Shown piece after piece: positions 1,813-7,677 of a DNA stretch of 24,661 nucleotides. How positions within the stretch are numbered: position 1 is the first letter of the stretch; every line of letters starts with the position of its first letter. A program made the translations under genes and the position numbers. The stretch lies in the NCBI GenBank assembly GCA_042216015.1, contig JBDGUI010000037.1, positions 1 to 24,661 on the forward strand. Reading direction: 5' to 3'. The DNA is from Halodesulfurarchaeum sp. (GTDB taxonomy: Archaea > Halobacteriota > Halobacteria > Halobacteriales > Halobacteriaceae). The notes beneath the pieces are model-generated. The model did no database searches. It was not told the origin of the DNA and saw only the letters and a program-made list of their open reading frames with translations.

Positions 1813-4761
1813 ATGAGCGAGGAGACTATCGAGGTCCGCGGGGCGGCCGAACACAACCTCAAGGACCTCGACGTGTCCATTCCGCGGGAGACCCTCACCG
1901 TCGTGACGGGGCTCTCCGGGTCGGGGAAGTCCTCGCTGGCCTTCGATACCATCTACGCCGAGGGCCAGCGACGGTACATCGAATCCCTCTCCGCCTACGC
2001 CCGGAACTTCCTCGGGCAGATGGACAAGCCGCAGGTCGAATCGGTCGAGGGGCTCTCGCCGGCGATCTCGATCGACCAGAAAAACGCCGCGAACAACCCC
2101 CGGTCGACGGTCGGGACCGTCACCGAACTCCACGACTACCTCCGTCTGCTCTATGCCCGGGTCGGCACCCCGCACTGTCCGGAGTGTGGCCGCGAGGTCG
2201 GCGAGCAGAGCCCCCAGCAGATGGTCCGCCGGATCTTCGAGTTCCCCGAGGGCACCCGCGCGAAGATCGCCGCGCCGATCGTCCGGGACCAGAAGGGCGC
2301 CTTCGAGGACCTGTTCGAGGAACTGCTTGGCGAGGGATACGCCCGTTGCGAGGTCGACGGAGACCCGTACGACTTGGCAACTGAGACGCCGGATCTGGAC
2401 GAGAACTACGATCACACGATCGACGTGATCGTGGACCGGGTGACCGTCCGCGAGGACGCCCGGTCGCGAATCACGGACTCCGTCGAGACCGCCCTCGAGG
2501 AAGCCGACGGGATTCTCAAGGTCATCCTTCCGGACCCGCCCGAAGCGGTGGACGTTGGATCGACGGCCCGGTCGACCGGCGATCTGGCAGCCGACGACGC
2601 GGACCCATCGGCCGCCGTCGAGTTCTCCGAGGACCTGGCCTGCACGCACTGCGGCATCGACCTCCCGGAGATCGAGACCCGGTCGTTCTCCTTCAATAGC
2701 CCGCATGGTGCCTGTCCGGAGTGTGAAGGGATCGGGGAGACCAAGGAGGTGAGCGAGGACCTGGTCGTGGTCGATCCCGAAAAGCCCCTCCGGTCGGTCT
2801 TCGAGCCCTGGAGTTACAACCGCTCGTACTATCGCAACCTGCTCGACAACGTGGCCGAGCACTTCGGCGTGAGCGTCGATACCCCCTTCGAGGACCTGAG
2901 CGAGGAGGTCCAGGAGGCGTTCCTCTGGGGGACGAGCGAGGAGGTCCACTTCGAGCAGCAGACGAAAAACGGGGTCCGACACAAACAGGAGCAATTCGAG
3001 GGGGTCATCCCGAACCTCGAGCGTCGCTACGTCGAAACGGACTCCGATCGGGTGCGAAACCACATCGAGGACTACATGTCGGTCACCACCTGCCCGGCGT
3101 GTGAGGGCACGCGGCTGAAGGCCGAGAGCCGCGCAGTGCTCGTCGATGACACCTCCATCACCGAGGTGAACCGGATGAGCGTCAAGGACGCCCGGGAACA
3201 CTTCGAGGGGATGGAGGCGTCCCTCTCGGAGCGGGATCGAACGATCGCCGAGGAGATCCTCAAGGAGATCCGCGCCAGGCTCGGGTTCATGGAGGAGGTC
3301 GGCCTCGATTACCTCACCCTCGACCGGGAGGCCTCGACGCTCTCGGGCGGGGAGAGCCAGCGCATTCGGCTGGCGACCCAGATCGGCTCCGGGCTGGTCG
3401 GCGTGCTCTACGTGCTCGATGAACCCTCCATCGGCCTGCATCAGCGGGACAACGACCGCCTGCTCGACACGCTCGAGGAACTGCGGGATCTCGGCAACAC
3501 GCTCATCGTCGTCGAACACGACGAGGAGACGATGTGGCGAGCGGATTCGATCGTCGACCTGGGCCCCGGGCCGGGCCGGCATGGTGGGGAGGTCGTCGCC
3601 CACGGCGACCCGGAGGAGTTGATGGCCGAACCCGATTCGATCACGGGGGAGTACCTCGCGGGGCGAAAGCAGATCCCGGTTCCCGAAACGCGTCGCGAGC
3701 GGGATGGGGTCCTGATGGTCAGGGGTGCCCGCCAGCACAATCTCGAGGACCTCGACGTCGAGATTCCGCTCGGCGTCTTCACCGCCATCACCGGCGTGTC
3801 GGGATCTGGCAAGTCCACCCTCATGCACGACGTGCTCTACAAGGGGCTCGCACGACGGATGAACGACAACACCTCGGTCGACCCCGGCGAGCACGACGCC
3901 ATCGAGGGCACCGAGGCGATCGAGTCGGTGCGGCTGATCGACCAGTCGCCCATCGGTCGAACCCCGCGATCCAATCCCGCGACGTACACCGGCGTTTTCG
4001 ACTACGTGCGCGAGCGGTTTGCGGAAACCAAACTCGCCAAACAGCGGGGCTACGAGAGGGGTCGGTTCTCGTTCAACGTGAAGGGTGGTCGATGCGAGGC
4101 CTGCGGTGGCCAGGGAACGGTCACGATCGAAATGAACTTCCTCTCGGACGTGCAGGTGCCCTGCGAGGAGTGTGGCGGGGATCGCTACAACGACGAGACC
4201 CTCGATGTGACCCTCCGCGGAAAGACCATCGCGGACGTCCTCGACATGACCGTCGAGGAGGCGCTTTCCTTTTTCGAATCCGACTCCCGGATCAGCCGGC
4301 GGCTCAAACTCCTCTCCGATGTCGGCCTCGATTACATGCGTCTGGGCCAGCCCTCGACGACCCTCTCGGGCGGGGAGGCCCAGCGGGTCAAACTCGCGGA
4401 GGAACTCGGCAAGCGGGACTCGGGAGAGACACTCTATCTCCTCGATGAGCCCACGACTGGGCTGCACAAGGCCGACGAGCGAAAGCTGATCGACGTGCTC
4501 CACCGCCTCGCCGATCGGGGTAACTCGGTCGTGGTCATCGAGCACGAACTCGACCTGGTGAAAAACGCCGACCACGTGATCGACCTCGGGCCCGAGGGCG
4601 GCGAGAACGGCGGCGATCTCGTGGCGACTGGCACCCCCGAGGCGATCGCAACGGTCGAGGTCTCCGCGACGGGACAGTATCTCCGGGACAAGCTTCCGGC
4701 CGTCGACCTCGACGGCCCGCGGGCCGGTGAACGGCCGACGAGCCGGGCACGTGGGGATTGA
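1813..4761 (+). CDS. uvrA: Excinuclease ABC subunit A
   Basis: Two ABC ATPase modules ([47 protein letters not shown]), zinc-finger CxxC pairs and an N-terminal [12 protein letters not shown]. Start placed at ATG 1813. Confidence 0.97.
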
Positions 4762-4855
4762 ATCGGTCGGATCGTTCCCGGACCGCTCCGTCTCTTCGAA
4801 TGGACCGTCCCGGATCGATATCCCTCTTCGAATCGATGCCTCCGGATCGGGGCGA

Positions 4856-5533
4856 CTAGTCCTCGTTTCGTTGGCCCTTGGCTCGCTCGGCCGCAGCAAG
4901 GTACTCCTCGAGCAATGCCGGAAACTCCCGGCCACGGAGGTACCGGAGGCCGAATTCCTCGGCCCAGTTGATGATCCCGGCGTCCTCGGTGACGACGCCG
5001 GCCTCGAGTTCGCGGGCCAAAACGAGCAGGTCGAAGTCCTCGCGGGAGTCGAGGATCCCCTGTCTGAGCGTCCGTCGGTACTTGTCCCGAAGTTCGGAGA
5101 TCACCTCGTCGGTGGCGGTCTTGTACTCGTGGTCGCCGAGTTCCTCGGCCTCTGTCTCCTGAGCCTCGCGCACCGCACGCTCGGAGACCCGGAGTCCGCG
5201 ATCCACCCGGTCGGACATCTCTTGGACGAACTCGTAGACCACCTCGGCCGGAATCATGACCTCGTAGTGGGCGGGGTTCTTCCGGATGATCCAGGTGTTG
5301 AGCCGTGAGATGAGTTCGGGGCTCAACGAGCGGTCCTCGAGCATCCTCAGGAGTTCCTCCTGGATCGACGGGGGCATGTAACAGGAGATGCCCAATTCCA
5401 GCTTCGCGTTCGCGATGAGGGTGATGAATCGCTCGAGCGCCGCCTCGAGATCCTCGTCGTCCTGACGGATCTCCCCGGTGAGGAAGGCCGAGGTATCGAC
5501 GACGAATCGCTGTTTGAGAGGTTCCTCCGGCAT
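4856..5533 (-). CDS. Protein-only RNase P, HARP (Aq880 homolog; PIN-like 'RNA ligase partner' MJ0950/UPF0278 family)
   Basis: N-terminal RFVVDTS, then CYMPPSI, a [11 protein letters not shown] spike-helix region, [17 protein letters not shown] and VVTED. The expected catalytic aspartates are all present. ATG at 5533. Confidence 0.88.
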
Positions 5534-5652
5534 GGGTGACACTTCGACAGCCGGGGGTAAAGTTCAACCGGCAATTTCGGCGCCTGCCTGGCCACTGGTG
5601 GGGCCCCTCGGGCCGGCGGACCGCTTTTTGCCTCGCCTCCCGTACCCGGGGT
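5534..5652. promoter_or_regulatory. Divergent promoter region shared by HARP and the RNA ligase
   Basis: 119-bp spacer. Minus-strand GAACTTTACC lies ~25-30 nt before the HARP ATG and plus-strand CTTTTTG ~25-30 nt before the ligase ATG, consistent with leaderless transcripts. Confidence 0.5.
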
Positions 5653-6756
5653 ATGGACGAGGCCGCCCTGTTCGACGTCGATACGGGGGATCTCGAGGCG
5701 ATCCGAGAGGCGATGAACACCGAATCGTATCGGGGACGGACCTACCGGTCGCTGAGCCGTCCGGTCCGGGGAGTCGAGCGGGGAACCGTCCGCATTGCAG
5801 ATACCCTCATCAGGGGCTACCCCAGTACCCCACGGGTCCTGGTGCTCGATCCCGGGGTCCCGACGTTCTTCGACGGGTCGATCGCGATCGAGGAGAAACT
5901 CAACGGCTACAACGTTCGGATCGCCCACGTCGGGGAACCGCTCGCGTTCACGCGCGGGGGCCACGTCTGTCCCTACACGACCCGGGTCGCCCGAGCACAA
6001 CTGAACCTCGAGGGGTTTTTCGCCAGTCATCCAGAACACATGATCAATGCGGAATTCATCGGCCCGGAAAACCCGTACACGGCGGCCGACTACGATGTCG
6101 ACTCGATCGAGCCGCGGGTCTTCGACGTTCGACACCGGGAGACGGGTCGTCCGCTCCCCGTCGAGGAGCGGCGGTCGATGGCCGACCGATTCGGATTCCC
6201 CCAGCCCGAACTGTTCGACGTCGTGGACGTCGAATCGGCCGTCGAGGTGATTCGGGACGTGATCGAGGACCTCGATGCCCGTGGCCGGGAGGGCGTGGTC
6301 ATGCAATCACTCGACGGGCGAGACCTCCTCAAGTACACGACGTCTTCCCAGCACCAGTCCGACCTCGAAATGGCCTTTTCGCTGCCTTTCGACTATGGGC
6401 AGGACTTTCTCTTCCCACGACTGGTCCGAGAGGGATTCCAGGCGGTGGAGTTCGAGGAGGACGAAGCGACGGTGCGCGAGCGCGCCCATCGACTCGGTGA
6501 GGCGATCCTCGAACCGATGGTCGAAACGATCCGAACCGTACAGGCGGGCGAGCCCGTCGGGGAGCGACACACCGTCCGGGGCAGTGAGAGCGCGATCGCC
6601 GAACTCCTGGCCCACTTCGACGAACAGGGACTCCGCGTCGAGATCGAGCGGGACCGTCGACTGGGGGACGAACGGGTGGTGGAACTCGTGAAAATCTCGG
6701 ATGCGACCCGGGACAAGATCGAACACTTTCTCGACGGCGGGACGATCGATCGGTGA
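5653..6756 (+). CDS. ATP-dependent RNA ligase, Pab1020/Rnl3 family
   Basis: IRGYP..PR, motif I EEKLNGYNVR, FTRGGHVCPYTT, motif III NAEFIGPENPY, IIIa VFDV, IV GREGVVMQ, V LKYTT, and a C-terminal region with FDYGQDFLFPRLVREGFQ. Confidence 0.92.
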   Translation: MDEAALFDVDTGDLEAIREAMNTESYRGRTYRSLSRPVRGVERGTVRIADTLIRGYPSTPRVLVLDPGVPTFFDGSIAIEEKLNGYNVRIAHVGEPLAFTRGGHVCPYTTRVARAQLNLEGFFASHPEHMINAEFIGPENPYTAADYDVDSIEPRVFDVRHRETGRPLPVEERRSMADRFGFPQPELFDVVDVESAVEVIRDVIEDLDARGREGVVMQSLDGRDLLKYTTSSQHQSDLEMAFSLPFDYGQDFLFPRLVREGFQAVEFEEDEATVRERAHRLGEAILEPMVETIRTVQAGEPVGERHTVRGSESAIAELLAHFDEQGLRVEIERDRRLGDERVVELVKISDATRDKIEHFLDGGTIDR

Positions 6757-6871: not shown

Positions 6872-6902
6872 AGAAAGTGTTAATATGACATACGTCATAC
6901 GT
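6872..6902 (+). promoter_or_regulatory. Archaeal BRE/TATA promoter with an overlapping palindrome, upstream of the candidate ncRNA
   Basis: AGAAA (6872-6876) then TTAATA (6880-6885), 20-25 nt before the 5' strand of the terminal stem. Perfect inverted repeat TATGAC-ATAC-GTCATA at 6884-6899. Confidence 0.65.
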
Positions 6903-6904
6903 TC

Positions 6905-7349
6905 ACATCCCCCTTGGAACGCCACGGGGGCACACTGGACGCCAACGTCCCGGATCGAAAGATCGAGACGGGGCGAGGTAGAGGCCACAACCAAAACGCC
7001 CGTAACAGGGCGGCAAGGTCACAGGTCTCGAAGGAGAACCGCACCGACCCGCCGTCGGGCCGCCATGGCGGTCGGAACCGAAGGCCAAGTACCGGAGCAC
7101 GCGTAAGCGGGCTTCGCGAATATCGACGGCAACGCCGGTGAAAATCCGGCTCACGCCAGCTCACCGGGCACGGCCGGATCCCGGATGAATCCGCTCGCTT
7201 CGCGAACGGAAATCCCGGTGCCAAACCGGGCAACGCCCGAGCTGGCAAGACCCGGTGAGAATCCGGGTAACGCCGTCGCGGGCCGTAAGGGTCGGGGACA
7301 ACGTCTCCCGTCCGGGCCTCAACCGTGCCGTTCCGTTCTGGGGTGTTTT
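6905..7349 (+). ncRNA. Large structured noncoding RNA of unknown family (~445 nt)
   Basis: Ends pair: ACAUCCC 6905-6911 with GGGGUGU 7340-7346, and GGAACG-C-CACGG 6916-6927 with CCGUG-C-CGUUCC 7323-7334. Nested long-range helices 6981-6986/7315-7320, 7044-7050/7289-7295, 7124-7130/7272-7278, 7155-7162/7239-7246 and 7163-7168/7214-7219. GAAA and GUAA tetraloops, two T-loop hairpins, a promoter upstream and a U-tract downstream. No credible ORF. Confidence 0.78.
7346..7349 (+). terminator. Short U-tract immediately after the closing stem (putative archaeal terminator)
   Basis: TTTT directly at the end of the 3' strand of the terminal helix. Confidence 0.4.
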
Positions 7350-7539: not shown

Positions 7540-7677
7540 ATGGTCGAGCCAGGACGGACCGTCGAGGTCCACTACACCGCCCGGATGGTCGATGGGCCGG
7601 ATGCCGGCGAAATCGTGGACACCACGGACGTGGACACCACGGACAGCACGGACGATCGACAACGAGGGAGGGGTTAG
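7540..7677 (+). pseudogene. Truncated FKBP-type (SlyD-like) peptidyl-prolyl isomerase N-terminal fragment
   Basis: MVEPGRTVEVHYTARMVDGPDAGEIVDTTDVD resembles the FKBP N-terminus (VxVHYTG/A...GEVFDTT). Similarity stops at a tandem duplication and the ORF ends after 45 aa. Confidence 0.7.
7614..7643 (+). repeat. 15-bp tandem duplication CGTGGACACCACGGA x2, followed by a degenerate partial copy
   Basis: Read directly at 7614-7628 and 7629-7643, then CAGCACGGA. Confidence 0.85.

Follow-up and report, generated by a model that had tools for sequence, protein, structure and literature searches.

The bulge-helix-bulge (BHB) is the signal of the archaeal splicing endonuclease, which cleaves each bulge behind its second base. 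To our knowledge, the archaeal circles known to derive from BHB motifs arise during tRNA and rRNA processing, as side products or as intermediates. Examples in the accessible text of PMC7714728 are tRNA introns, circles of pre-16S as well as pre-23S rRNA and an intron in the HVO_1309 5′ UTR, and none of the seven BHB circles given there for Haloferax volcanii has the size of the RNA described here. This RNA shares with them the hBHBh′ arrangement, the rule by which the cuts are placed and the covalent circle, whereas it lacks a host tRNA, rRNA or mRNA, its short flanks vary, and what is conserved is the circle. A closer counterpart is circRNA_0460 of Haloferax volcanii, an unannotated intergenic 281-nt circle supported by 171 reads in RNase R-treated circRNA-seq (PMC12558985, 2025), for which the accessible part of the entry gives no structure, family, BHB or link to the protein-only RNase P known as HARP. 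Many Haloferax members of the RNA family are predicted at 281 nt, and circRNA_0460 is probably one of them, as judged from its type and length rather than its sequence. A conserved 281-nt circular RNA in Haloferax has reportedly been noted in a study on circular RNA production, which our literature search did not return.

HARP assembles into rings of up to six dimers and recognizes the elbow of tRNA; deleting it left the growth of Haloferax volcanii unaffected, and what it does in archaea is described as unknown (PMC10941002). For the pair that it forms with the RNA ligase Rnl3, the clients proposed are C/D RNAs or adenylated pre-tRNAs, and the accessible text names no dedicated RNA (PMC12153264). 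The same divergent gene pair adjoins the RNA studied here, which persists where the ligase has been lost. PF09745, the accession printed for HARP in that paper, denotes another family and gives no match, and PF08745 (PIN_5) is the one that does. Our search, confined to the open literature, returned no description of the RNA family, its structure, its conserved BHB or its link to HARP. Thus, the Haloferax circle has probably been seen before, and the family, structure, conserved BHB and HARP link are apparently new in the literature searched.

The window, by which we mean the whole 24,661-nt stretch of Halodesulfurarchaeum sp. DNA that was analyzed, carries the RNA element as a single-copy intergenic feature between the Rnl3 ligase gene and the remnant of an FKBP gene (Table 1). 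Its closest named relatives, from Halodesulfurarchaeum sp., are 91% identical. The acidic active-site motifs of the adjacent HARP, a gene that went unmentioned in an earlier, sequence-based note on this DNA, appear intact in an alignment, and the real start of the ligase lies probably near 5653. The FKBP remnant that the earlier note had placed downstream is indeed one; its first 25 codons (7540–7614) are 72% identical to those of a homologous gene that is intact at another locus (L011). The same note had placed a BRE/TATA just upstream of the RNA, and when homologs were read by eye, an A-rich/TATA-like element recurred at a similar distance in most of them, whatever the upstream gene; a sigma-70 promoter scan is not applicable to archaea. 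As for coding capacity, none of the reading frames is conserved: the lengths of 34 homologs are spread across all three (14, 9 and 11), and none stays open across the whole set.

Table 1. Features at the HARP–Rnl3–RNA locus, in window coordinates.
Feature	Position	Strand	Basis
HARP (PIN_5, "RNA ligase partner"), a protein-only RNase P divergent from ligase	4856–5542	−	PF08745 E 5e-77; TIGR03875 253 bits, cut-off 95
Rnl3 (Pab1020-type) ATP-dependent RNA ligase	5536–6756	+	PF18330, PF09414, TIGR01209
Putative own promoter, BRE-like AGAAA + TATA-like TTAATAT	6872–6886	+	sequence
Predicted precursor transcript	6905–7349	+	z −5.39; ends inferred from promoter, terminal stem, U-tract
hBHBh′ 5′ side: outer helix 6923–6927, central GGGC 6928–6931, bulge ACA 6932–6934, inner helix 6935–6941	6923–6941	+	homolog comparison
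Predicted mature 388-nt circular RNA	6934–7321	+	inferred from conserved motif; 280-nt circle shown for homolog L105
Conserved branched arm: 6981–6985/7025–7029, CC/GG, GUAACA-loop hairpin	6981–7029	+	covariation
Core: helices 7033–7037/7304–7308, 7044–7050/7289–7295, 7083–7086/7281–7284	7033–7308	+	covariation
Hairpin with self-complementary loop CAUG (7064–7067), candidate RNA–RNA dimer contact	7055–7076	+	covariation
Loop-E-like AGUA/GAA motif closing a covarying hairpin	7087–7120	+	pattern in 60/62 circles; helix 94.8% paired
Variable domain with three T-loop-like hairpins (7134–7150, 7214–7230, 7250–7268)	7122–7279	+	homolog comparison
hBHBh′ 3′ side: inner helix 7309–7315, central GCCT 7316–7319, bulge CAA 7320–7322, outer helix 7323–7327	7309–7327	+	homolog comparison
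FKBP-type PPIase gene 5′ remnant, neighbor only	7540–7677	+	comparison with L011

The two ends of the element come together in a conserved hBHBh′ motif, with predicted cuts at 6933/6934 and 7321/7322, a position taken from the junction observed in a homolog (see below). The arrangement is that of an endonuclease (EndA) substrate, a 4-bp helix between 3-nt bulges on opposite strands with helices flanking it. A script run over 69 distinct homologs (2 more were skipped), 68 of which could be anchored on the inner helix, recovered the BHB with all four central pairs in 63 of the 68, and in the 3-nt register only. Of the five misses, four stem from misplaced anchors and show the motif when read by eye, and the fifth is the copy in genome G343. 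A comparison of registers gave 3.84 central-helix pairs versus at most 2.46, and 3.54 versus at most 1.66, and three of the four central pairs show compensatory changes. The motif is not specific on its own, since a de novo BHB scan gives 65 matches in the organism's own genome.

Direct evidence for the circle comes from raw reads of four RNA runs from two studies, mapped on a compact, Haloferax-type homolog (L105). Reads crossing the junction 1700→1421 were present in all four runs (25, 592, 153 and 3,934) and on one strand, with up to 138 distinct starts. Coverage was strand-specific and limited to approximately 1421–1700; in run X24 it was 3,300–5,900 versus 2–51 in the adjoining bins, and the other three runs peaked at 318, 1,357 and 537, depths that may be inflated by reverse transcriptase running round the circle. 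The circle so defined is 280 nt long, and each of its ends follows the second of the three bases of a bulge flanking a 4-bp helix, with one base at the junction that fits either side. In this genome, which is HARP-positive and ligase-negative, the L105 molecules appear to be mostly circles, without a dominant one among the internal ends listed. The expectation that a transcript exists is therefore borne out in a homolog, and the RNA is large and structured, as had been proposed; where the earlier note envisaged a linear molecule of ∼445 nt, the mature form is a BHB-excised circle, as seen in L105. Taken together, these data make it highly probable that the window encodes a circular noncoding RNA at 6934–7321.

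Two further observations concern individual copies. Read-end hot spots occur at 1557 and 1561–1562 of L105 (within 1557–1573) in all four runs, just 5′ of a 7-bp helix, and may reflect either a priming artefact or an internal cut. The copy in G343 (L108:1450–1700) has lost the canonical BHB together with part of the 5′ arm and is possibly decaying.

The claim that the element forms one closed structure that folds better than shuffled sequence holds. Specifically, the plus strand of 6905–7349 folds at −224.5 kcal/mol (z −5.39), none of 100 dinucleotide shuffles being as good, versus a z of −2.90 for the minus strand. Compensatory changes across distant homologs, as anticipated, run throughout the RNA family. 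In the 5′ model 91.9% of cells are paired and both sides have changed in 25 of 32 pairs; in the 3′ model the values are 88.1% and 31 of 42. The long-range and terminal helices reach 95.8%, with both sides changed in 18 of 21 pairs. None of 500 shuffles reached the observed paired share in any of the three tests and slid controls were far lower, the structures having been derived from the same sequences on which they were tested. The 95.8% figure is additionally flattered because its 34 rows were chosen for cleanly anchored ends, with the BHB-less L108 left out.

Several helices proposed in the earlier note recur in the comparative structure. The terminal helix 6916–6927/7323–7334 is backed by covariation (its inner five pairs were counted), CCGACCC/GGGUCGG (7044–7050/7289–7295) carries the strongest signal of all, and the CGCCC/GGGCG and CGGAGC hairpins are likewise supported. 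The outermost stem, 6905–6911/7340–7346, was seen in close relatives only. GAGGCC/GGCCUC lacks such backing and is 72.8% paired versus 71.4% in shuffles, 53 of 500 of which score as high. As we read the covariation, 6935–6941/7309–7315, 6981–6985/7025–7029 and 7033–7037/7304–7308 replace GGACG-CCAA-CGUCC and UCUC-GAAG-GAGA, and the T-loop hairpin at 7214–7230 takes the place of ACCGGG/CCCGGU. The helices that had been named at 7124–7278 fall in the variable domain.

Within this fold, the CAUG loop stands out for the behavior of its two adjacent inner bases, which covary as AU (12), CG (11) and UA (1) among 27 homologs. Adjacent bases cannot pair within one molecule, and therefore pairing between two molecules is suggested; the hairpin is absent from Haloferax and from family f16. 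The AGUA/GAA pattern at 7087–7120 is one that we take to be a loop-E motif. The variable domain is reduced to one short hairpin in compact homologs, and across 69 rows the T-loop-like hairpins number from 0 to 4 per homolog and grow in number with length (Spearman 0.77). Positions ∼7039 to 7298 of the core make up a module of ∼120 nt. A metagenomic homolog of 862 nt (L225:291–1152) holds six diverged tandem copies of it inside one bulge-helix-bulge, and an assembly repeat is unlikely because the copies differ from each other. In genome G083, the core has a large insertion (L109:1615–1660).

None of the known RNA classes tested accounts for this element. The assertion that it belongs to no catalogued class agrees with the absence of any Rfam match in scans of the window and of 27 loci, in which matches on the element were at chance level only. 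RNase P RNA shares its size range with the family; nonetheless CR-I and CR-V each occur in 0 of 62 circles, the RNase P RNA pseudoknot was not found in the RNA, and the genome's sole RNase P RNA match (RF00373) is on another contig (C25). A short AAGGCCRAG...GGCC helix of the RNA resembles P15 of RNase P, and a stretch of 11 nt that is complementary to the RNase P RNA of this genome falls within helices on both sides. ARAGORN called no tRNA gene in the window and Rfam matched no rRNA or tRNA there; the RNA interrupts no tRNA or rRNA gene, and no tmRNA was found in 6905–7349. At a lowered threshold ARAGORN made 649 meaningless calls. The C box occurs in 1 of 62 circles and CUGA in 21 of 62, the patterns for group I R, group I S and domain V in 0, 0 and 1 of 62, with no Rfam match to these introns, and covariance models for SRP RNA, tmRNA, OLE, ROOL and GOLLD gave no match either. 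The earlier note had reported signatures of RNase P RNA, SRP RNA, C/D box, tRNA and group II intron as missing. A weak match of model R1 in 23S rRNA is ascribed to chance (E 0.04, 1 of 40 genomes; HMM E 0.5; none with R2).

HgcG (RF00064) was also considered as a distant relative and rejected, as 0 of 5 genomes exceeded the cut-off and, at five HgcG loci, neither model nor the HMM matched the HgcG stretch below E 0.8. The HgcG copies themselves (L173–L177) have three hairpins, UGAUGA-type and ACA-type boxes and a promoter inside the Rfam match, and look like an H/ACA guide. The RNA resembles OLE, ROOL and GOLLD, which are of similar size and share a multi-junction fold, loop-E/T-loop motifs and possible oligomerization through self-complementary loops; it differs from these in being archaeal, circular and made by splicing, and in having no Rfam match. 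The evidence supports a class of large, structured, circular archaeal RNAs outside every family tested.

Members of the family measure about 230–450 nt, apart from the 862-nt copy, and occur in Halobacteriales and in one further family. Strong BLAST homologs were found in 12 other genomes among 56 of the organism's own family, and a 21-nt pattern run over GTDB genomes returned 58 loci; the 53 true homologs lie without exception in Halobacteriales records, and the five bacterial matches are not homologs. Two covariance models added divergent members. In f16, a family outside the order, the RNA was present in 3 of 3 genomes by model (E 8e-8 to 2e-10) and in 4 of 4 by pattern, with the whole layout kept. 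Among 65 metagenome pattern matches, 26 carry the RNA and the other 39 are not homologs. Every carrier genome scored by the models has one copy; one MAG contains three loci (L040, L066 and L073), two of them at contig ends, and may be a mixed assembly or have more than one copy. Distant members may be missed, because 48–150 candidates were scored per genome in the covariance search.

The distribution of the RNA follows that of HARP. The nuclease is encoded in 31 of the 32 genomes behind RNA loci, versus 19 of 54 in a Halobacteriales sample, and the one exception is a MAG whose RNA is a near-duplicate of that of a HARP-positive genome. Within the organism's own family, HARP and the ligase occupy the same 17 of 56 genomes, and the RNA is in 15 of these 17 and in 0 of the 39 that lack HARP (completeness is 67% and 72% for the two HARP-positive genomes without it, and one match at E 0.007 was not counted). 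The 54 Halobacteriales genomes are of other families; among them, 8 of the 19 with HARP contain the RNA, as does 1 of the 35 without, one match at E 6e-4 not being counted. Among 40 HARP-negative genomes, the second model was positive for G343 only, the sole complete HARP-negative carrier, which is also without the ligase. No p-value is attached to this co-occurrence because related genomes are not independent. No other gene recurs beside the RNA as often as HARP, which lies at most 2.5 kb away in 6 of the 38 lineages that we labeled and in three arrangements (divergent, convergent, and with the ligase between), the next gene reaching 3; most copies do not adjoin it (32 of 38 lineages; 0 of 28 loci in another set; flanks of 1.5–5 kb).

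It is HARP and not the ligase that tracks the RNA: all 8 Halobacteriales examined that have HARP and no ligase (three genera only) retain the RNA, versus 2 of the 13 sample genomes that encode both enzymes. Accordingly, the idea of the ligase as key partner was dropped. The dependence is one-way. No RNA match was obtained in 11 HARP-positive Halobacteriales (5 of them rescored), and of 40 HARP-positive genomes from other orders 37 likewise gave none (27 of them also searched with the second model). In non-carriers, a de novo BHB scan brought up nothing next to HARP that would convince as a substitute RNA. Shared descent of RNA and HARP is likewise not supported: HARPs of carriers and non-carriers intermingle on the tree, no residue was seen that tells them apart, and over nine lineages the distances of the RNA do not correlate with those of HARP (r 0.07, p 0.36). 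On the tree, HARPs from G058 and G059 fall within family f5 (L141, L142, L137), which suggests that the HARP–ligase pair may have been transferred independently of the RNA. In two non-carriers, the gap between HARP and ligase is ∼1.8 kb (L124:5025–6871) and ∼2.4 kb (L125:5699–8117) and has no RNA homolog; and G201, a sister genome of G083 that is 98% complete in 120 contigs, has HARP and ligase with no RNA copy found. On balance, a functional tie between the RNA and HARP is likely, and the evidence for it, although strong, is correlative.

Building from these observations, we propose a free-standing gene whose circular RNA acts on HARP, a reading that in its entirety stands at about an even chance. 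The element's own promoter would give a precursor of ∼445 nt with ends that pair as a bulge-helix-bulge. The tRNA splicing endonuclease EndA would then cut after the second base of each bulge, and an RtcB-type splicing ligase would close the 388-nt inner piece, the short flanks being discarded. The circle would fold into the conserved multi-junction core, for which covariation supplies the secondary structure, with optional T-loop arms and, in many lineages, the self-complementary loop for dimerization. It may then bind the HARP oligomer as a tRNA-shaped ligand that has no free 5′ leader, and so restrain, store or organize the nuclease, as a counterweight beside or instead of Rnl3. Two findings temper the notion of tRNA mimicry, namely that ARAGORN sees no tRNA fold in the window and that compact homologs lack the T-loop arms. 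That the circle serves HARP as decoy or scaffold rather than as substrate is a serious possibility, to which we give slightly less than an even chance on the strength of the association.

The most direct competitor turns this relationship around and makes the circle the physiological substrate of HARP, opened at a tRNA-like site for activation or turnover and resealed by Rnl3 where that enzyme is present. HARP cleavage leaves a 5′-phosphate and a 3′-OH, and Rnl3 joins such ends; the one-way dependence is what one would expect of a client; and HARP, Rnl3 and the RNA are clustered in the organism's own genus and in G161. The RNA nonetheless persists without the ligase in eight genomes, and L105, which has HARP and no ligase, looks mostly circular with no dominant one among the internal ends listed, its hot spots at 1557–1573 being possible artefacts. 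We consider a substrate role rather unlikely. We favor a restraining or organizing ligand because the circle offers no 5′ leader to remove. A comparably low probability attaches to the proposal that the RNA is an ornate structural RNA or RNP scaffold in the manner of OLE, ROOL and GOLLD, belonging to the same stress response as HARP without contact between them. The trans covariation in the self-complementary loop, the modular expansions, the high abundance, the independent histories of RNA and HARP and the one complete HARP-free carrier would all suit such a scaffold; it leaves unexplained why HARP adjacency arises repeatedly, in differing orientations, despite different gene histories, and why the RNA is found in only 0 of 39 and 1 of 35 HARP-negative genomes, while the HARP-free copy looks decayed.

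The remaining two explanations fare worse. A selfish, intron-like mobile RNA that exploits EndA and HARP for its maturation or spread might be expected from the patchy presence of the family, from neighbors that change even within one genus, from the copies on four megaplasmid records and from an excision that resembles that of an archaeal intron. However, scored genomes hold a single copy each (the three-locus MAG aside), the element has its own promoter, no ORF and no interrupted host gene, the viral and phage collections searched contained no copy of it (further searches gave 0 of 2), and at ∼65% the nucleotide identity between lineages is as high as that of the HARP protein; we regard a selfish origin as very unlikely. 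Least probable of all, to a degree that makes it nearly negligible, is a C/D or H/ACA modification guide released as a circular intron like that of tRNA-Trp. The BHB route is known for such guides (PMC12558985), yet the C box and D-box tetramer are as scarce as noted above, no Rfam snoRNA matched and the RNA is unrelated to HgcG. We favor the ligand model over the substrate, independent-RNA, selfish-element and guide readings.

In the Halobacteriales examined, every HARP was accompanied by the ligase, by the RNA or by the two together, which suggests that ligase and RNA are two alternative counterweights to one nuclease, with the ligase-negative carriers limited to three genera and a counter-example outside the order, G063, in which HARP occurs with neither. 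If the decoy model holds, the RNA would resemble the RNA antitoxins of type III toxin–antitoxin systems, which restrain a neighboring nuclease, and the tandem modules of L225 would add to the likeness; in contrast to those antitoxins, the RNA here is circular, usually single-module and often unlinked. It is not an obligatory antitoxin, because many HARP genomes lack it. The six module copies of L225 parallel the up to six dimers of HARP, a correspondence seen in one contig. More speculatively, then, the RNA might be a dedicated HARP partner, encoded by a gene with no other purpose than to yield a stable spliced circle, whose ∼120-nt module docks on HARP dimers, singly or, as in L225, up to six times.

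In terms of broader significance, the circle described here is itself the conserved product of its own gene, and it represents an abundant RNA class that is missing from Rfam. The splicing endonuclease gains a further kind of substrate, and the role of HARP in archaea becomes directly testable through the RNA. Its compact, naturally circular and possibly dimerizing fold also makes it a ready target for cryo-EM. If the RNA is a dedicated partner of HARP, the "RNA-free" RNase P would be a regulated ribonucleoprotein, and this would explain why HARP is retained where an RNA-based RNase P handles tRNA.
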